A stretch of DNA of 64,000 nucleotides from Escherichia phage Baret: sequence record OR896834.1, one strand, 5' to 3'. This document shows positions 31,096-63,787 of this stretch, piece by piece; the first letter of the stretch is position 1, and every line of letters starts with the position of its first letter. The notes under the pieces are model-generated. The model saw only the letters and a program-made list of their open reading frames with translations, had not been told where the DNA came from and made no database searches. Position numbers and translations under genes: made by a program.

Positions 31096-31202
31096 TCTTT
31101 TGAATAGCTTAATAATTAGGTCGGAATTTCCTCTAGCTAGTAAGTATAGCTTTTCATAATCGAAGAATTTAATTTTTGTTTTCTCCTCGAATTTATGTAT
31201 AT

Positions 31203-31232
31203 ATTATACTAGATTTCGAGAGAATTTAGCAA
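31203..31232 (-). promoter_or_regulatory. sigma70-type early promoter (TTGCTA-18-TATAAT)
   Basis: minus-strand -35 at 31227-31232, -10 at 31203-31208, AT-rich upstream block. Confidence 0.65.
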
Positions 31233-31303
31233 CTAAAATTTTTATTTTTCTGCTTCGGACTTTCTTATCAATCCGAAACTTTCTCTCTCAAATTTATGTA
31301 TAT

Positions 31304-31331
31304 ATTATACACCATTTATAAGCTGTTGCCA
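31304..31331 (-). promoter_or_regulatory. sigma70-type early promoter (TTGGCA-16-TATAAT), tandem with 31203-31232
   Basis: minus-strand -10 at 31304-31309, -35 at 31326-31331; shares 22-nt downstream element AATTTATGTATATATTATAC with neighbour. Confidence 0.5.
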
Positions 31332-43786: not shown

Positions 43787-44020
43787 TTACGATTCCTTGA
43801 GCAAAGAAGCAAGTTCAGCATAGACTTTATCTAATTCAAAGCCGATGCGAAGAGACACGTTTGTTTTCCGTTGTTTAAGTAACCACTCGGATATGTTAGG
43901 GATGCCAGCTAATCTAGCAGGAACCACCCTACATAGCTTTTCCGAAGTATCGTAAACAGGAACTTTACGCTCTTTTACTGGGAACTTCCTTGTTTCCCAT
44001 TTTTTATTCTTCACTGTCAT
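43787..44020 (-). CDS. hypothetical protein
   Basis: 77 aa from ATG 44020 (ORF-track start is GTG 44029). Confidence 0.4.
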   Translation of the reverse strand: MTVKNKKWETRKFPVKERKVPVYDTSEKLCRVVPARLAGIPNISEWLLKQRKTNVSLRIGFELDKVYAELASLLKES

Positions 44021-46793
44021 TTCTAGCACCTAGCTCTGCCATTGCTTCATCATGCATATGTTTCTCCTCATCAGGCATAAACTTATAAGGAATTGGCATA
44101 CACTCGATTTTACAATAGGTTCTGTACCAGTCTACAATATTTTCAGTGTTCATATCCTTACCAATACCCATCATACCAAGATACATTCTAGCATATTTTG
44201 GGTTAGCACTCTGACCTGTTTTAAGGAAGAAGTCCTTCTTCTTACCTTTCAGAGCTTCTATGAATGGTTTGATAGTGACGTTTGAACACTTCTTAATATC
44301 TTCCCAAAACATCTCGTGCATTTTATGGAAGAATGCCGCTCGATCATTAGGTTTATCCTTGATATATTGTTCAACATGCTCAACTGTTACATCTTTAATA
44401 GACTCAAGATGATAATAGCGAACAAGAAGTAGTTTAGCTTCATACGCATCCGCATGACGTGGAGCACAATAATCAGGAGTTGAATGTAGAATAGCTTTGA
44501 TTCGCTCTTCCATATATTCTTTCCCTGCACCTTCAATAGTTCCCCAGCTTTCGCTGAAAATATCAATAGTTGCACCCTGATCAAGCAAGTAATAACGTAA
44601 AGTACTAGTATAATTTCTAGATTCCAGCTCTCTACGACGTGCATATAATTGCTGTGCTAACTCCAGCCAGCCCTCATCAATATTATATTGTTCAGAACCT
44701 GCAGAGAATCCACTCGTAGATTTATCAATAAAATAATAGATATTCTGAGCACCACGGTCGCGCCTGATTGCTTGAAAACGCATGTTTGGCGCTTGGTTAC
44801 TGGTTCTAGTAATAACGAATACGTTATCAAAATAGTTGAAGTCAACCCCACTCGTTACGGATGGACTACATAATAAGCAATCAATTTGTTGATCAATCAG
44901 CTCATTAGTTGTGTAATCCAGAATACGTCTAATATCCACATCAGACGTAGAATTTGAGTGGATTTCCTTAACTAACGCACCCGTATTACGACGTAATGCC
45001 ATACCCTTCTCATTCAGCTCATCAGGGGCACAATCAGATACCAGAATAGATTTCTCACCCATCTCTAGAGAAGTCTGAAGTGCAACCCAAATACTGGATT
45101 CATCAGGAAACTCATAAGCATGAGCTTTTGACAGCATTTTACGGTGATGATTATAAAATGCAACCGGTTTATCAAACTCGATCAAAGAACCATATGCTTC
45201 AATTGTTTCTGCACTAATATCACCATCTGATAATATAATGATTTTTGCAGTTGCAAGAATATCCCGAAGAACCTGAATACATTCACGACGTTGTTTAACA
45301 ACCGGGGCGAATAGTAGGTCATTCATTACTGCATCACATTCATCTATAAAGATTGCATCAATTTGACCAATAAAACTCTTGAACTTATGCAAAGAGTGAA
45401 TAGTTGTGGACATACGGTCAATAGCACCACGCTTAAAATTAAGCATATCTACAGACTTATCATATTGTCCTGCACTAAATTTCTTAGCATTGGAAGATAC
45501 CAGTGCTCGAGTATTGGTAATTGCTAAGAAATTACCTTTAATAACTCTTGAATCTAACCAACGCACAACCGCTGTAGTTTTACCTGTACCTAGACTCGCT
45601 TTTACAAAAGTCATATAACCTTCTGGTGGCACAGTATTTAATTTCAAGAAGTTATCAGTCTCTAAAGAGTTAGTTTCTAGCTTTTTGAGTGGAATACCTT
45701 TTAAAACATCCGGTATATCACGTTTAGAATTATTAACAAATGCTTTTAGAGCCTGTTTACGACCATTATTAAAGTAGTCTTGAATATTACGACTATTATC
45801 TTTAGTTGCAATATATTCTGATAAGGCTGGACGGATTTCTTTTTCTAGCCATGCAAAATCAACACCATCCTCTAAAGCCCTGTGATAGAGTTTAGGAATA
45901 ATACGTAGATACACTCCATCCTCAGCTTCTTCTAGTTCGCTGATGGTTTCTTCTACTTTATCAGAGGCAGCTTTTTTACCCTTAATTTGGTCGAGTAAAG
46001 AGTAGAACTCTTCTTTAAACTCACCTCTAGTTGTTTCATAGTCAACCAGATTATTGGGTAAATTTACTTTAGAACCCTTAACAAATACCAGACGTGAAGC
46101 ACCCTCCGCTTTAAACGGATCTACTATACCATCGGTAAATAACGGATCTGCAAAATAATGGAGCTGTACGGAAGAGTAATAAGCTAAGTCGGCAATATCA
46201 AAGCCATACTTTTGTCTACTACTTTCGTTGATAGATGTAAATAAGAATTTGATTTGACCCTGAGTTACTTTAACATTAGATTCTAGTATTAAGTGCATTC
46301 GGATACCTGGTTTTAGCCCAGCCGAAGATGATGCATGAGCGATAAACCCTGCATCAAGAGGAAACATATCCTCACTAATACTATTTAACATTCTAATAAT
46401 ATGTCGAGCCATGCCAACAAGATCAAACTTGTTACAACCACCTGTATCTACAATACCATCCACGTCCATTGCAATTATATGACTTGGGTTAGATACATTA
46501 AAGTTGCCCTTCTTACGTCGCACATTATTTTTAGGTGCAAGACATCGACCTCGTACCGCAACGATATGAGGGTCAGACGTTAAACGTCTCATAAGAGGAA
46601 GCATTTCTACTAGGGTTTGAGGATCAACTTCGTCAATTACATCAAACTTGAAGGGCATTGAAGCTGGTTTACCTTCAGGATGCTTTGAGGAAAATCTTTT
46701 AGCAAAAAGATAATCTTCTGCTTTAACTTCTCGCCAATTGCCTGTGGCTAAATCGCGATGAAATCCTGCATGACCTTGTAGGATTGAAAACAC
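44004..46793 (-). CDS. large P-loop NTPase, putative replication-initiation/origin-binding helicase (start uncertain)
   Basis: Walker A SLGTGKTT and Walker B IFIDECD; ORF-track start 46871 is TTG; GTG 46793 has AGGAG RBS 7 nt upstream. Confidence 0.55.
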   Translation of the reverse strand: MFSILQGHAGFHRDLATGNWREVKAEDYLFAKRFSSKHPEGKPASMPFKFDVIDEVDPQTLVEMLPLMRRLTSDPHIVAVRGRCLAPKNNVRRKKGNFNVSNPSHIIAMDVDGIVDTGGCNKFDLVGMARHIIRMLNSISEDMFPLDAGFIAHASSSAGLKPGIRMHLILESNVKVTQGQIKFLFTSINESSRQKYGFDIADLAYYSSVQLHYFADPLFTDGIVDPFKAEGASRLVFVKGSKVNLPNNLVDYETTRGEFKEEFYSLLDQIKGKKAASDKVEETISELEEAEDGVYLRIIPKLYHRALEDGVDFAWLEKEIRPALSEYIATKDNSRNIQDYFNNGRKQALKAFVNNSKRDIPDVLKGIPLKKLETNSLETDNFLKLNTVPPEGYMTFVKASLGTGKTTAVVRWLDSRVIKGNFLAITNTRALVSSNAKKFSAGQYDKSVDMLNFKRGAIDRMSTTIHSLHKFKSFIGQIDAIFIDECDAVMNDLLFAPVVKQRRECIQVLRDILATAKIIILSDGDISAETIEAYGSLIEFDKPVAFYNHHRKMLSKAHAYEFPDESSIWVALQTSLEMGEKSILVSDCAPDELNEKGMALRRNTGALVKEIHSNSTSDVDIRRILDYTTNELIDQQIDCLLCSPSVTSGVDFNYFDNVFVITRTSNQAPNMRFQAIRRDRGAQNIYYFIDKSTSGFSAGSEQYNIDEGWLELAQQLYARRRELESRNYTSTLRYYLLDQGATIDIFSESWGTIEGAGKEYMEERIKAILHSTPDYCAPRHADAYEAKLLLVRYYHLESIKDVTVEHVEQYIKDKPNDRAAFFHKMHEMFWEDIKKCSNVTIKPFIEALKGKKKDFFLKTGQSANPKYARMYLGMMGIGKDMNTENIVDWYRTYCKIECMPIPYKFMPDEEKHMHDEAMAELGARNDSEE

Positions 46794-46871
46794 AACAATA
46801 CTCCTGTGTTGAAAATGAAATAAGTTTTCTTTAGGACTATTCAGAAAGAATAGAACAACTGTTACTGTCAA

Positions 46872-47292
46872 TTTCTCAACAAATTAATCGCAAATACTGA
46901 AGGGGGGTGGCAACTTCCCCTTTCACGCTACACTGCCGCTTCACTATACCGCACAAATCCTTGAGGATGGCCGCTAAGCCAGATTTGCTCACCTAATGCT
47001 TCATGTACTAGCTCATACTAGATGCAGTATACCTTACGTCATCACTTCTCAGAGTTTTTCACTCTTCCCGTCTCACTTCACAACCACCTCACACTAGGTT
47101 GCTTCGAGGCCTTACCAGGGTTCCTACGGGATGTAGATCGCTAAGTATTCTATTAACTATTTGTTTAAAAACTAACACGTAACAGTTAAAACAACCCTTA
47201 ATGGGGCAGCCTAACTGTTCCGTATCGCGGATTGTAAACAAGAAAAATTAGCAAAATCAATTTTTACTAATGTCTCTCAATTCAATATAAAT
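46872..47292 (-). other. ORF-free, compositionally distinct leader/non-coding island downstream of promoter 47293-47321
   Basis: no ORF of 60 aa or more on either strand; plus strand C/T-rich, unlike flanking AT-rich DNA; transcribed leftward from a consensus promoter. Confidence 0.5.
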
Positions 47293-47321
47293 ATTATATC
47301 AAGATTTTGGGCATCCTGCAA
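47293..47321 (-). promoter_or_regulatory. sigma70-type early promoter (TTGCAG-17-TATAAT)
   Basis: minus-strand -10 at 47293-47298, -35 at 47316-47321. Confidence 0.55.
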
Positions 47322-47397
47322 GTAAAATTTTCCGGATGGTGCTATCATTGGTCTTGAGTACGGATAAAACCGAGCCAAAATGACTCGGTTATGTGGA

Positions 47398-47595
47398 TTA
47401 GACGCTTAAAATACTTCTAATCTCTTCTATATACTTACCTACTTTTTTAGCATCTACTTTACTTAGTTTTCCTATATCAAAATCAGGATCAGTAAACATT
47501 CTAGCTATCTCTATCTCTAGAGACTTACTAATTTTCCCGGTAGTATTCCACTTAGAAATCTTACCTTTTATTTTCCAAAATTCCTTATTCATCAT
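47398..47595 (-). CDS. hypothetical small protein
   Basis: 65-aa ORF, Lys-rich. Confidence 0.4.
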   Translation of the reverse strand: MMNKEFWKIKGKISKWNTTGKISKSLEIEIARMFTDPDFDIGKLSKVDAKKVGKYIEEIRSILSV

Positions 47596-47977
47596 TTAGG
47601 CCTGGAACATAAATCCCAACACGGTTTAATTGTTCTTTAGCTTCTTTGAGAATATCTGGAGTGTACTCCCAAATATCATCTTCTACCTGTAAAAGATGGG
47701 GCGAACAACCGTCATCAGGCACACGACATATGGCCAAACCACGTGGATGGAATATAGAGAAGTTTAGGGCAACAATTAAACCCATAGCAGACAATTCATT
47801 CCAATCCAATTCCCATTCCCTAGCGTAGCCTGATAGGAAAACACCAACACAGGGATCATCTATTTGCTGCTCTGGAAAAGTGAAGGAGGCTTGTCTTACC
47901 CCCAACCAACGTTGTAGCAGCTTCTCAGCACGCTTCACCAAACTAGGATCAATCTGACGCCAATATACTTGTTCCAT
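47585..47977 (-). CDS. hypothetical protein, tandem paralog of 47987-48415
   Basis: 130 aa; shared pattern (PC[IV]G...MGL[IV].ALN...F.P...L.V.....W.Y.P...PGL) with neighbour; AAGGAGG RBS. Confidence 0.55.
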   Translation of the reverse strand: MEQVYWRQIDPSLVKRAEKLLQRWLGVRQASFTFPEQQIDDPCVGVFLSGYAREWELDWNELSAMGLIVALNFSIFHPRGLAICRVPDDGCSPHLLQVEDDIWEYTPDILKEAKEQLNRVGIYVPGLNDE

Positions 47978-47986
47978 TCTGCCTCC

Positions 47987-48415
47987 TTAAGCAGTTAAAC
48001 CTGGGATCATATACCCGAAATGGCGAAGTTTCTGAATCCCCTCATTCACTTCTTCCGGTGAGTAAGACCAACCATAACGTTCATTAACCTGAAAACCAGG
48101 AGATTCACTAGTTTTATAGTTAACAACTAGGCGATGCTTAGCAGGCATAAACAGCTTATAGTTTAACGCAAAAACTAAGCCCATTTCGTCTAACTCTTTC
48201 CAGCCCACAATCTCTTCAAGACCATCCTCTACCTGCACAATTAAACCAATACAGGGGGCCTCATCAATATCATCCTTAAAAGCAAAGGAGATTTCGTTAT
48301 TCTCACACCATATTTTCAAAGAGTTAATAGCCTCATTATACAGGCTAGCTGGGAGAGTACGCCAAAAGTTAACCAAAATTGGGTTAGCTTCTTTAGAGAA
48401 TACATTATTGAACAT
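47987..48415 (-). CDS. hypothetical protein, tandem paralog of 47585-47977
   Basis: 142 aa; see paralog. Confidence 0.55.
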   Translation of the reverse strand: MFNNVFSKEANPILVNFWRTLPASLYNEAINSLKIWCENNEISFAFKDDIDEAPCIGLIVQVEDGLEEIVGWKELDEMGLVFALNYKLFMPAKHRLVVNYKTSESPGFQVNERYGWSYSPEEVNEGIQKLRHFGYMIPGLTA

Positions 48416-52644: not shown

Positions 52645-52673
52645 TATACTCTCCTTCTCTAACTAAGACTACT

Positions 52674-52702
52674 ATTATAACTCATTCGAGGGCGGATGTC
52701 AA
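52674..52702 (-). promoter_or_regulatory. consensus sigma70 promoter (TTGACA-17-TATAAT) for nrdD
   Basis: minus-strand -35 at 52697-52702, -10 at 52674-52679; AAGGAGAG RBS and ATG 52644 follow. Confidence 0.7.
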
Positions 52703-52753
52703 CAATATTTTACTATAAAGTTCTGTAACATGATCTGAGTCAAAAAATTTTAT

Positions 52754-52782
52754 TTGCCAATCTCTATTAAAAATTGTATAAT
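52754..52782 (+). promoter_or_regulatory. sigma70-type promoter (TTGCCA-17-TATAAT)
   Basis: -35 52754-52759, -10 52777-52782, AT-rich upstream. Confidence 0.55.
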
Positions 52783-52894
52783 CACGCACTCGTACACGCG
52801 ATATAAAATGATTATCTAGTATCACACATCTCACGTTAAAAGCAAGCAAATTTTTTATTTAAATGCAATATCATAGGCTTATTTAAAATTGTAG

Positions 52895-52923
52895 TTGCTT
52901 TTTACTGTATATATTGGTATAAT
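52895..52923 (+). promoter_or_regulatory. sigma70-type early promoter (TTGCTT-17-TATAAT) upstream of phoH
   Basis: -35 52895-52900, -10 52918-52923. Confidence 0.65.
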
Positions 52924-52996
52924 ATATTTGTAAGTTGATAAACAAGATCTTTTTGTTGATCCTCTGTTAGCGAAGTACACTATAGGAGTGTTATTT

Positions 52997-63345: not shown

Positions 63346-63728
63346 TAATTTAAAAGCTAGTAAATCGGTAGACGAAAGCCCAAGCATCTTACCTCGCAGC
63401 AGCGGTTGAAATACGAGGTTAAATAAGACCGCTGACCATACTATAAAGTATAATCTATTGGAGATTATGTTTATTACACCAGCCTTTTAAGCTGACACGT
63501 AAGAACAAAGCGTCGTTGATATTACCGACACAACTTCAAAGATCAACATTTAAGTATGAAAGCTGAAAAGTTTAAAGAACTCAAACTTCTAAACTTCTAA
63601 AGCTAAAAGATGCAAAGTATTCGTTGATGATTCAAACCCTAGATCAAAGGTACATGGCTCATAAGATATGGCCTGTGGCGCCTCTAGGCTGTTTATCGGT
63701 TTACTAGTTTCACAATTTAAAAATGTAT

Positions 63729-63757
63729 TTGCTAATCCACTAAATTATATGTATAAT
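63729..63757 (+). promoter_or_regulatory. sigma70-type early promoter (TTGCTA-17-TATAAT)
   Basis: -35 63729-63734, -10 63752-63757. Confidence 0.7.
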
Positions 63758-63787
63758 ATATTTTTAAATTGATGAAACGAGGCTATT

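Follow-up and report, generated by a model that had tools for sequence, protein, structure and literature searches.

What could occupy several hundred base pairs that seem to code for no protein and that lie directly ahead of a replication gene? In this work, we have addressed this question by computational analysis of a window of 64,000 nucleotides, the whole stretch of DNA considered here, from Escherichia phage Baret (OR896834.1). A preliminary description of this DNA had pointed to an island at positions 46,872-47,397 and had listed as candidates a structured leader or small RNA, a replication origin, or a decayed gene. Our results strongly support the first of these, with a conserved promoter, at least 11 helices and abundant compensatory changes in diverged relatives. 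The island is probably the template for a large conserved structured RNA, which would constitute a new family in T5-like phages (Demerecviridae) and would form the 5' leader of the D2 helicase transcript. We infer that the function of this RNA is tied to the replication-initiator gene.

Extent and coding content of the gap

As the preliminary description stated, no ORF of 60 aa or more is present at 46,872-47,397 on either strand, and the ORF listing holds only five ORFs of 33-50 aa there. This is the largest gap of its kind in the window, the others measuring 220, 343 and 376 bp. Its D2-side edge had been placed too far to the right, at a 955-aa ORF that starts from a TTG at 46,871, but all relatives annotate the gene from a GTG at 46,793, which is preceded by an AGGAG Shine-Dalgarno site and whose M1 is invariant in the N-terminal alignment. 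Since the gene starts at this GTG, the intergenic stretch is 46,794-47,397, that is 604 bp and not 526 bp. The gene that it precedes is the following:

44004..46793, minus strand: D2 orthologue (T5.108), a 929-aa SF2 bipolar helicase annotated 'replication origin binding protein' (annotation and Pfam)

The D2 orthologue matches the Pfam family Herpes_ori_bp (E = 2.4e-7). The biochemistry of T5 D2 has been described, and the protein has been proposed as the initiator of T5, the origin of which is unmapped (PMC3632103). The RNA described below was always found ahead of D2; that it leads into the large helicase gene, as first suggested, agrees with our prediction, with the helicase starting at 46,793 instead of 46,871.

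The composition of the island does differ from that of its neighbours: at 46,900-47,099 the plus strand is C-rich, with a GC content of 0.485 and a GC skew of -0.32, against a GC content of 0.30-0.42 on either side. The RNA had also been called purine-rich, which holds mainly as an excess of G over C (0.27 versus 0.16 in the core), the purine excess of the RNA sense strand being modest (0.535).

It is very improbable that the gap contains a decayed gene, or a string of small protein genes as in PP429239, without function at the RNA level. One close relative annotates ORFs of 38, 50 and 33 aa in the gap, and the record of a D325 Vibrio phage fills its own gap with ORFs of 29-55 aa. However, none of the five ORFs of 33-50 aa matches a PHROG at E <= 0.1 (the flanking 65-aa ORF does so at 6.5e-40), there is no conserved frame, and the longest ORF varies in strand and position between sequence types. 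Eight relatives (T5, Eps7, oldekolle, JLBYU43, DaisyDussoix, My1, DU_PP_V and JIPh_Kp127) annotate no gene in the gap, and the substitutions preserve base pairs, not codons. According to the annotation, 590-1,270 bp ahead of D2 are gene-free in T5, DaisyDussoix, My1, DU_PP_V, JIPh_Kp127, PSTCR5, Brizo and KKP_3711. The size of the gap is 590-710 bp in 8 of the 9 relatives measured, across subfamilies (1,273 bp in KKP_3711), a steadiness unexpected of decaying DNA in a compact phage genome. We have therefore rejected both the decayed gene and the small protein genes, and annotations that place hypothetical mini-genes in the gap are corrected by this finding.

Promoter and predicted transcript

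Two signals delimit the transcription unit on its 5' side:

47366..47390, minus strand: terminator-type hairpin AACCGAGUCA-uuu-UGGCUCGGUU followed by UUUU, an inverted repeat that ends the upstream 65-aa gene
47293..47321, minus strand: T5-early-type sigma-70 promoter (sequence and conservation)

The hairpin is the 5' boundary of the unit; the homologous site is annotated as a terminator in HASG4 and T5, and it is kept in DU_PP_V with compensatory differences. The promoter consists of a -35 TTGCAG (47,316-47,321), a 17-nt spacer and a -10 TATAAT (47,293-47,298), with an A/T tract upstream. Its position had been given exactly in the preliminary description, which called it a consensus sigma70 promoter; the -35 is instead typical of T5, matching TTGACA at 3 of 6 positions. 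Because of this -35 a generic promoter scan missed it, and the generic promoter/terminator scan, which also missed the upstream terminator, was therefore dropped as evidence. TTGCA and TATAAT are invariant in 8 relatives, one of them a Pectobacterium phage, the T5 GenBank record (AY543070) annotates a promoter at the homologous position, and a pattern search (TTGC-N19-21-TATAAT) found like promoters in sequence types A-E, G and H.

Transcription is predicted to start at about 47,286, and the resulting RNA, of ~495 nt up to the helicase start at 46,793 and not ~400 nt as first estimated, should run into D2. This read-through is deduced from the lack of a recognisable terminator between promoter and D2, an interval in which we found no defined 3' end for the RNA either. 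As in a cis-regulatory leader, the RNA lies between the promoter and the D2 start, with neither a terminator nor another promoter in between. In the window, T5, My1, the Klebsiella phage, the Providencia phage and type H, the stretch from core to D2 is free of promoter-like sites; the exceptions are the Proteus phages, with a consensus promoter 66 nt before D2, and possibly DU_PP_V, at -99.

A large predicted multi-helix fold

Type-restricted alignments were used, since most helices were lost, and type H was misaligned, when all types were aligned together by anchor-segmented MAFFT. The Markadamsvirinae set comprises 29 distinct T5/Epseptimavirus leaders (87 pairs), and the four-type set comprises sequence types A, H, C and D (61 pairs), whose D2 N-termini are 65-100% identical. 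The predicted fold consists of a 5' hairpin, a 26-nt invariant motif, a core of ~335 nt with at least 11 helices that is closed by a long-range duplex of ~30 bp, and two small hairpins 3' of the core, with the ribosome-binding site and start codon inside the second one. Its parts are, from 5' to 3' of the RNA:

47240..47278, minus strand: H1, 5'-terminal hairpin GAGAGA-c-AUUAGUAAAA / UUUUGCUAAU-u-UUUCUU, RNA positions 9-47
47201..47226, minus strand: J1, 26-nt motif GAUACGGAACAGUUAGGCUGCCCCAU between H1 and core, RNA positions 61-86
47155..47188, minus strand: P1, 5' strand of the core-closing duplex, positions 99-132
46889..47154, minus strand: core multi-helix domain, positions 133-398
47,144-47,150/46,891-46,897, minus strand: P2, from single-sequence folds, RNAduplex and reading by eye, outside the pair counts
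47,131-47,141/46,925-46,933, minus strand: P3
47,126-47,130/47,067-47,071, minus strand: P4, which encloses P5 and P6
47,110-47,119, minus strand: P5
47,073-47,107, minus strand: P6
47,051-47,065, minus strand: P7
47,043-47,050, minus strand: conserved GAGAAGUG
47,026-47,033/46,943-46,950, minus strand: P8a
47,017-47,024/46,990-46,997, minus strand: P8b
46,981-46,988/46,953-46,960, minus strand: P9, which encloses P10
46,969-46,980, minus strand: P10, GGCU-UAGC-GGCC
46,901-46,921, minus strand: P11
46856..46888, minus strand: P1, 3' strand, positions 399-431 (basis as for the 5' strand)
46837..46853, minus strand: hairpin CUAUUC-uuucu-GAAUAG ahead of the ribosome-binding site, positions 434-450
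46791..46808, minus strand: hairpin CACAG-GAGUAUUG-UUGUG, with part of the Shine-Dalgarno AGGAG and the D2 GUG start

All 16 pairs of H1 are formed (100% paired) in the 29 leaders and, as read by eye, the hairpin is built from different bases in DU_PP_V, My1 and the Klebsiella phage. J1 is invariant in all Markadamsvirinae examined, nearly so in the Pectobacterium and Klebsiella phages, and without covariation. The closing duplex P1, which contains a 9-nt perfect inverted repeat, was recovered by RNAduplex from two flanking windows at -26 to -38 kcal/mol in 10 of 11 sequence types, with a different sequence in each of the 10 and none of 300 shuffles as good; columns 104/431 switch from G-C to A-U (14 versus 14 sequences). 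P1 and P2 together make an imperfect duplex of ~39 bp in the window RNA, with comparable duplexes in 10 of 11 types, which is longer than the double-stranded RNA of at least about 20 bp expected of an RNase III substrate. Within the core, P3, P9 and P10 hold in the T5/Eps7 type too. The hairpin at 46837..46853 is invariant in the 29 leaders, and hairpins in the same place were read by eye in DU_PP_V (CUUUC/GAAAG) and the Klebsiella phage (CUAUC/GAUAG); the five pairs of the hairpin at 46791..46808 are 100% paired, two of them changing from C-G to U-G.

No conserved mutually exclusive pairing of the core with the ribosome-binding-site hairpin or with a terminator was found. The only candidate alternative pairing, J1 AACAGUU with P1 AACUGUU, is interrupted by a C-A mismatch in DU_PP_V and in sequences of the T5 type. 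A contact between J1 GGCUGC and P10 GCGGCC, which fits types A, C, D and H without double compensatory change, is speculation on our part.

Covariation and the strand that carries the fold

The preliminary description had proposed folding and alignment with T5-like relatives as a check, and compensatory changes were found in both sets. In the 29 leaders, 99.9% of the cells are paired, versus 38-48% in slid controls, and 96.4% versus 36-46% in the four types, percentages that are inflated by drawing the tested structures from the same alignments; this does not inflate the both-sided changes relative to the controls. Such changes affect 17 of the 87 pairs in the 29 leaders (0-3 in slid controls) and 37 of the 61 pairs in types A, H, C and D (3-12 in slid controls, 10.4+-2.3 in shuffles). 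The covariation score is 0.228 in the first set, a value that none of 500 shuffles reached, versus at most 0.059, and 0.364 in the second, versus at most 0.07. Thus the fold is supported by covariation, as expected of a cis-regulatory leader, and compensatory substitutions maintain helices across otherwise unalignable sequence types. An automated search for positionally conserved helices was dropped: it anchored the wrong UUAGCG copy, and 4-bp stems within +-6 nt were equally common in shuffles.

Thermodynamic z-scores (-2.7 for sense RNA, -3.1 for antisense RNA and -4.65 for sense DNA) separate neither the strands nor RNA from DNA, and the strand was therefore assigned from the G-U pairs. G-U is the commonest form in 16 of 87 pairs in the 29 leaders and in 11 of 61 pairs in the four types, with almost no unpaired cells. 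On the other strand these pairs would be A-C mismatches, so that the fold belongs to the transcribed-sense strand.

These data also bear on a possible origin of replication. Transcription from the strong early promoter could open the duplex, after which the transcript would serve as primer or R-loop or, alternatively, the sense-strand DNA thus displaced would adopt the conserved fold; in either case the adjacent D2, an orthologue of the herpesvirus UL9 origin-binding protein, would be recruited. The island is directly upstream of the only origin-binding-type gene, that of the proposed initiator of a phage without a mapped origin (PMC3632103), and the site lies near the middle of the T5 genome (59.0 of 121.75 kb). 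The G-richness of the RNA and the C-richness of its template favour RNA:DNA hybrids, folding predictions give a stable structure for the DNA as well (z = -4.65), and a promoter with a ~495-nt non-coding transcript is predicted, as in transcript-primed origins. Nevertheless, we regard a transcript-dependent origin at the island as improbable, since so strongly self-paired a transcript would be a poor R-loop former, and the 16-18% of G-U wobble pairs, well tolerated in RNA, would become destabilising G-T pairs in DNA. Iterons are absent, as are other repeats apart from chance-level two-copy ones of 10-17 nt, and the GC skew has no inflection at 47 kb; its switches, at about 25 and 53 kb, coincide with changes of gene orientation. 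In T5, the strand bias of a recombitron suggests mainly unidirectional replication from one end (PMC10055335). On the absence of iterons and of a skew change, an origin of the iteron/DnaA-box type was rejected, and the preliminary suggestion of an origin drew no support from these tests.

Distribution among T5-like phages and exchange of the core

Throughout the family, D2 is preceded by a long gap free of ORFs. In T5-like phages of six enterobacterial host genera (Escherichia, Salmonella, Klebsiella, Providencia, Proteus and Pectobacterium), this gap holds a promoter-led leader in which the conserved motifs and the closing duplex recur. In the window, identity to T5 falls to 34-49% over 47,170-46,888 and is mostly 80-97% in the flanks, so the core is a sharply bounded cassette differing from that of T5. 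Such allelic cassettes suggest that the core is a specificity or arms-race determinant. A covariance model of the P3-to-P7 subdomain recovers types A, H, C and D only; the T5 type and the Providencia, Proteus and Vibrio phages escape it, and in the Klebsiella phage it finds P7 plus GAGAAGUG only (E = 0.55). Conservation of the architecture therefore does not extend to the whole core. A distant metagenomic relative gave one weak match to this model (E = 0.017-0.067), next to its D2 homologue. Scans of IMG/VR and metagenomes added few new sequences, and no similarity was found in 5,426 E. coli genomes. Three GTDB genomes matched a two-motif pattern and were discarded as chance matches: about 7 are expected by calculation, and none shows further similarity.

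Does the RNA belong to a known class? Scans with Rfam/Infernal and ARAGORN, named as checks in the preliminary description, returned no known family and no tRNA. ARAGORN found 0 tRNA or tmRNA genes in the whole window, in agreement with the lack of tRNA signatures noted before. With the 4,227 covariance models of Rfam 15, which include riboswitches, RNase P, 6S, GOLLD, ROOL, OLE, HEARO and group I/II introns, nothing in the window reached the gathering score and nothing credible appeared at E <= 10 in 46,700-47,600, where the best match was to an archaeal snoRNA model (17.4 bits, threshold 36). The corresponding loci of 16 relatives gave one match at E <= 0.1, on the upstream terminator hairpin (28.7 bits, threshold 100). 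Some motifs (AGAAGUGA, UAGCG and AGUGU-GGGG...CCCC) are reminiscent of 5S rRNA, a resemblance without Rfam support. Full-text searches of the literature yielded no description of this RNA, no discrete RNA species and no mapped T5 origin. A large fold ahead of D2 that matches no catalogued family is thus probably a new functional RNA, and not junk or a dead gene.

Possible roles of the RNA

We propose that the host RNA polymerase would transcribe the RNA early in infection and continue into D2, and that RNase III would cut the long AU-rich closing duplex P1. The core could thereby be freed as a stable RNA, with the D2 mRNA keeping a short hairpin-capped leader, and the RNA might set the level or timing of D2, act with a protein partner, or both. 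Since the Proteus phages have a second promoter, D2 is not always leader-dependent, which weakens a purely cis-regulatory role.

Does the function lie in the leader or in the core itself? The core could be the functional product, an independent non-coding RNA acting in trans after release, for example, by RNase III at P1. As RNA or ribonucleoprotein, it might then work with D2 or with some other replication protein, or distract a host nuclease or defence system as a decoy, and its linkage to D2 would reflect co-expression or co-evolution and not regulation; this overlaps with a structured D2 leader, the only difference being the place of the function. With about 335 nt, at least 11 helices and several invariant single-stranded motifs, the core exceeds typical translational operators, nearly every type has the long closing duplex, the Proteus phages have the separate D2 promoter downstream of the RNA, and the exchange of the core as a cassette that retains its structure would suit a specificity or arms-race determinant. 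Against this, no terminator or defined 3' end was found, the searchable literature documents no discrete RNA species, and in the Markadamsvirinae the interval between core and D2 is without a promoter-like site, so that in these phages the D2 transcript physically includes the RNA. A trans-acting RNA is thus a possibility that we hold with some doubt. Rather unlikely, though bolder, is that a new large class of phage RNA starts T5 replication together with D2, as a loading platform, primer or specificity module whose cassette defines the replicon 'type', or that it is a decoy RNA against host defence.

T5 is a classic model phage, and an RNA of ~0.5 kb before its putative initiator helicase would be an unexplored player in the start of replication or in early-gene control. 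It would be among the few large structured RNAs (over 300 nt) outside the known classes, and its allelic cassettes, which keep the structure at about 40% identity in near-identical genomes, are a natural experiment on RNA function and specificity. If the replication-partner or decoy reading is true, the long-unmapped initiation of T5 replication becomes directly testable.

Comparison with known systems

The proposed D2 leader resembles leaders and spacers processed by RNase III, such as the lambda N leader, the R sites of T7 early mRNA and the rRNA processing stems, in having a long imperfect AU-rich duplex, the strands of which, hundreds of nucleotides apart, enclose structured RNA in a phage early transcript. 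Cleavage, which is here a proposal, would free the enclosed RNA and re-shape the downstream mRNA. In phages, the RNase III sites known so far are simple ~60-nt hairpins, whereas here the duplex closes a 335-nt multi-helix domain with invariant motifs. As in riboswitch, T-box and glmS leaders, a covariation-supported domain occupies the 5' UTR of a single gene, whose start codon and ribosome-binding site fall in a hairpin further downstream; the T5-like RNA differs in having no match to an Rfam riboswitch, no nameable ligand, a much larger core, swappable cassettes and, in the Proteus phages, a D2 promoter that bypasses it.

The GOLLD, ROOL and OLE RNAs also span several hundred nucleotides, with many helices and islands of invariant nucleotides, and GOLLD and ROOL are phage-carried. 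They come from stand-alone genes, which often lie close to tRNA genes, and assemble into homo-oligomers; in contrast, the T5-like RNA is co-oriented and apparently co-transcribed with a replication gene, and it does not match their Rfam models. With ColE1 RNA II, T4 oriF/oriG and the T7 primary origin it shares a strong promoter and a long structured G-rich non-coding transcript near replication genes, and ColE1 RNA II also needs a specific fold; unlike in these transcript-dependent origins, no hybrid-forming element, RNase H site or unwinding element was identified here, and the whole RNA is a closed compact domain. Finally, the pRNA of phage phi29 is likewise a phage-encoded structural RNA supported by covariation, which serves a DNA-handling machine, although it is shorter (120-174 nt), is a component of the packaging motor, is transcribed between a promoter and a terminator of its own, and shares no similarity with the T5-like RNA.

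The predicted leader region upstream of D2

The window belongs to a T5-like phage (Demerecviridae, Tequintavirus), and the 1.1 kb around the finding, which matches 523 phage records, is 99.5% identical to Salmonella phage vB_Si_CECAV_FGS017. As the preliminary description stated, every ORF listed in 46,872-47,397 is shorter than 60 aa, and this is the biggest such gap within the 64 kb, followed by gaps of 376 bp (63,388-63,763), 343 bp (52,645-52,987) and 220 bp (31,096-31,315). The island thus stands, but its size of 526 bp does not. The mechanical ORF on its left (44,004-46,871) begins with a TTG at 46,871; since the relatives' annotations start the helicase at the GTG at 46,793, with an AGGAG site ahead in all of them, and the N-terminal Met from this GTG is invariant in 10 orthologues, the true intergenic stretch is 46,794-47,397, or 604 bp. 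The 78 extra nucleotides of the TTG-start ORF (46,794-46,871) overlap the hairpins around the ribosome-binding site. The distinct composition was also confirmed, with GC 0.485 and GC skew -0.32 at 46,900-47,099, and with G 0.27 and C 0.16 on the minus strand of the core.

The downstream gene, the orthologue of T5 D2 (T5.108), codes for an SF2 helicase with a Herpes_ori_bp domain; the D2 product is a bipolar helicase and the proposed initiator of T5 replication (PMC3632103). Relatives also have a long stretch ahead of this gene.

Stretch without annotated gene upstream of D2 in relatives
T5: 617 bp
DaisyDussoix: 619 bp
Pectobacterium phage DU_PP_V: 600 bp
Pectobacterium phage My1: 590 bp
Klebsiella phage JIPh_Kp127: 598 bp
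Providencia phage PSTCR5: 711 bp
Vibrio phage Brizo: 712 bp
Enterobacter phage KKP_3711: 1,273 bp

In the GenBank record of T5, a promoter and a terminator are the sole annotations within this gap, at places homologous to those in the window; in other records the gap is empty or holds hypothetical mini-ORFs.

Signals flanking the island in the window
47,366-47,390, minus strand: terminator-type hairpin closing the upstream 65-aa gene
47,293-47,321, minus strand: promoter (A/T tract, TTGCAG, 17 nt, TATAAT)

The promoter had been described as consensus sigma70; its site and position hold, but the -35 matches TTGACA at only 3/6 positions, which is why a generic promoter scan overlooked it. TTGCA and TATAAT are invariant in 8 relatives, one of them a Pectobacterium phage, and the same promoter type is present in every sequence type searched for it. 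Transcription is predicted to start at about 47,286, and promoter and D2 start are ~495 nt apart, instead of the ~400 nt first proposed for the leader. Because no terminator is seen between promoter and D2, and no second promoter in Markadamsvirinae, the RNA would form the 5' leader of the D2 mRNA. In two Proteus phages (loci L050 and L051) a consensus promoter of the RNA unit, TTGACA-17-TATAAT, stands at -796 from the D2 start and a second one, TTGACA-18-TATAAT, 66 nt ahead of D2, so D2 can be transcribed there independently of the leader. In DU_PP_V, TTGATG-17-TATAAT occurs at -99, within the 3' strand of P1, a part of the RNA listed with the fold.

No tRNA was found, in agreement with the preliminary description, and no tmRNA. 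The decayed gene that it listed as a candidate did not hold up: the small ORFs match no PHROG, in contrast to the 65-aa ORF next to them (47,398-47,595, minus strand), which matches phrog_29527 with E = 6.5e-40, and the longest ORFs shift strand and position among sequence types; a coding remnant was thus rejected. The 65-aa ORF lies between a DUF7415 gene and the terminator. It is missing at the corresponding position in T5 and an Eps7-like phage, with no alignment across 47,471-47,570, and is an accessory insertion adjoining the RNA unit. Further upstream, 47,585-47,977 and 47,987-48,415 (minus strand) are adjacent paralogues with two DUF7415 repeats each (E = 9e-32 and 3e-35), labelled 'exonuclease' or 'tail tube protein' in various records, apparently on no basis.

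A conserved fold around an exchangeable core

In the alignment of relatives, the promoter, the 5' hairpin, a 26-nt motif (GAUACGGAACAGUUAGGCUGCCCCAU) and the final ~75 nt before the start codon are ultra-conserved. The core between them occurs in very different sequence types, with invariant islands such as GGCUUAGCGGCC. Between the window and T5 the flanking genes mostly share 80-97% identity and the stretch 47,170-46,888 only 34-49%, with sharp edges; over this stretch T5 shares 88-96% identity with an Eps7-like phage. The window's core, designated type A, is nearer to those of Pectobacterium phages and of a metagenomic locus (L109) whose D2 N-terminus is 70% identical than to that of T5. 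The core thus behaves like an exchangeable cassette.

Predicted fold of the window RNA (minus strand; RNA positions counted from the predicted start)
9-47: H1
61-86: J1 motif
99-132 with 399-431: P1
137-143 with 390-396: P2
146-156 with 354-362: P3
157-161 with 216-220: P4, with P5 and P6 inside
222-236: P7, followed by conserved GAGAAGUG
Next in the model: P8a and P8b
299-306 with 327-334: P9, with the P10 hairpin GGCU-UAGC-GGCC inside
366-386: P11
434-450: hairpin preceding the ribosome-binding site
479-496: hairpin with the Shine-Dalgarno site and GUG start

Compensatory changes, which the preliminary description had proposed to look for among T5-like relatives, were found in two alignments, each evaluated on the structure derived from it. 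In the first (A3; 29 distinct Markadamsvirinae leaders), RNAalifold gave 87 pairs, which were then counted independently: 99.9% of cells are paired, against 38-48% with partners slid by 1-3 columns, both-sided changes affect 17 pairs (0-3 in slid controls), and the covariation score is 0.228 (at most 0.059 in controls; 0/500 shuffles reach 0.228). P3 CUACAU/GUGUAG varies to CUGCGU/GCGCAG and CUGUGU/GCACAG, P9 changes at 4 pairs, and in the outer closing helix G-C becomes A-U in 14/29 sequences. The second (A4), restricted to the core of eleven type-A variants and types H, C and D, has 61 pairs in 11 helices, 96.4% of cells being paired (36-46% in slid controls); both-sided changes occur at 37 pairs, compared with 3-12 in slid and 10.4+-2.3 in shuffled controls (0/500 shuffles reach 37), and the covariation score is 0.364 (controls at most 0.07).

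Folding energies separate neither the strands nor RNA from DNA (z-scores of -2.7, -3.1 and -4.65 with sense RNA, antisense RNA and sense DNA, respectively). At 16/87 and 11/61 pairs G-U is the most frequent form, with almost no unpaired cells; as G-U pairs become A-C mismatches on the complementary strand, the fold belongs to the strand transcribed by the promoter. The abundance of wobble pairs would also favour RNA over single-stranded DNA.

The closing duplex was evaluated type by type with RNAduplex, in windows set relative to the UUAGCG motif. It reaches -26 to -38 kcal/mol, equalled by 0/300 shuffles, in 10 of 11 types (A, A2, A3, T5, Eps7, H, DU_PP_V, My1, Providencia and Proteus), and is weak in the Klebsiella type. 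A covariance model of P3 to P7 recovers only types A, H, C and D and finds no T5-type, Providencia, Proteus or Vibrio leader, so the model does not demonstrate conservation of this part of the core in them; in the Klebsiella leader it weakly matches only P7 and GAGAAGUG (E = 0.55). Of the window's elements, equivalents in the T5 type can be assigned only for H1, J1, P1, P3, P9, P10, P11 and the 3' hairpins.

An optional 88-96-nt insert between H1 and J1 (insertion point near window 47,240-47,247), found at loci L006 (JLBYU43), L028, L041 and L054, forms a hairpin, is single-copy and lies between copies of a TTTTTCTT direct repeat. It occurs in 51 phage records, among them both core types and Epseptimavirus phages, and could represent either an additional RNA module or the trace left by a small mobile element. 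Klebsiella phage IME260 has a second unannotated gap (1,971-2,528 of its locus L009; 558 bp) between the SSB and DNA helicase genes, with a 60-nt promoter region in common with the finding, and this gap may be another long leader. Among distant relatives, Vibrio T5-like phages (L016, L060-L064) and a metagenome locus (L114; D2 N-terminus 29% identical) likewise have a leader ahead of the D2 homologue that is 650-750 nt long, G-rich and free of ORFs. In L114 and the Thalassavirus-type (Brizo-like) leaders, a strong promoter comes first and a 5' hairpin next, and the Vibrio leaders share a GUGACUAACC motif; alifold on 6 of them gave 30 compensatory pairs, with non-canonical cells in 89/160 pairs.

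Possible roles of the RNA

The conserved promoter, the conserved strand-specific fold with its covariation and the fixed synteny with D2 strongly support the structured leader or small RNA proposed among the preliminary candidates. We consider it probable that the RNA is a structured leader/ncRNA of the D2 transcription unit. Host RNA polymerase would make it early and continue into D2. The ~39-bp AU-rich P1/P2 duplex would be a natural RNase III substrate, whose cleavage would free a ~330-nt core and leave a D2 mRNA with a ~70-nt leader beginning near the hairpin that precedes the ribosome-binding site. The RNA may set D2 expression, act as stable RNA or within a ribonucleoprotein, or combine these functions.

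A role beyond that of a simple operator is favoured by how large the core is, by its invariant loops and by the second consensus promoter that Proteus phages have directly ahead of D2. These features would suit a purely trans-acting RNA, a reading that overlaps with ours; the missing terminator and the strict linkage to D2 favour a role in cis, and exclusive trans action is rather unlikely. Since the evidence points to both roles, we retain the broader designation of a structured leader/ncRNA.

Replication origins were also considered. The preliminary description raised a replication origin; one of the iteron kind is contradicted by the lack of repeats and of any inflection of the GC skew at 47 kb. 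Skew flips occur at ~25 and ~53 kb, coinciding with flips of gene orientation. The 343-bp gap at 52,645-52,987, at such a switch (cumulative-skew minimum ~53 kb), is a divergent control region with two promoter-like sites on the plus strand (52,754 and 52,895) and, if only skew is considered, a more conventional candidate for an origin than the island. Derivation of the island from the host was rejected, with 0 matches in 5,426 E. coli genomes. That the transcript itself drives an origin is unlikely: D2 is UL9-like and no T5 origin has been mapped, but the RNA is compact and self-paired, there is no skew signal, and the strand bias of T5 recombitrons suggests replication chiefly from one end (PMC10055335).

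The N-terminal 300 aa of D2 (window 45,894-46,793) have no sequence match in Pfam or PDB, and D110-x-D112, S155/S157/G159 and H167 are invariant in orthologues down to 25% identity, a pattern that may resemble the catalytic motifs of archaeo-eukaryotic primases.

The covariance-model scan advised in the preliminary description placed the RNA in no family of Rfam 15, and a full-text literature search found no description of it. A two-motif pattern gave 3 matches in 185,579 species genomes, where ~7 are expected by calculation; these are chance matches, none with further similarity, and the pattern has no credible occurrence outside the phage family in that set. The most fitting class for the RNA is that of a new family of a known kind, the large structured leader/non-coding RNAs of phages, among which it is unusual in its long closing duplex, its cassette-like core and its fixed pairing with an initiator helicase.
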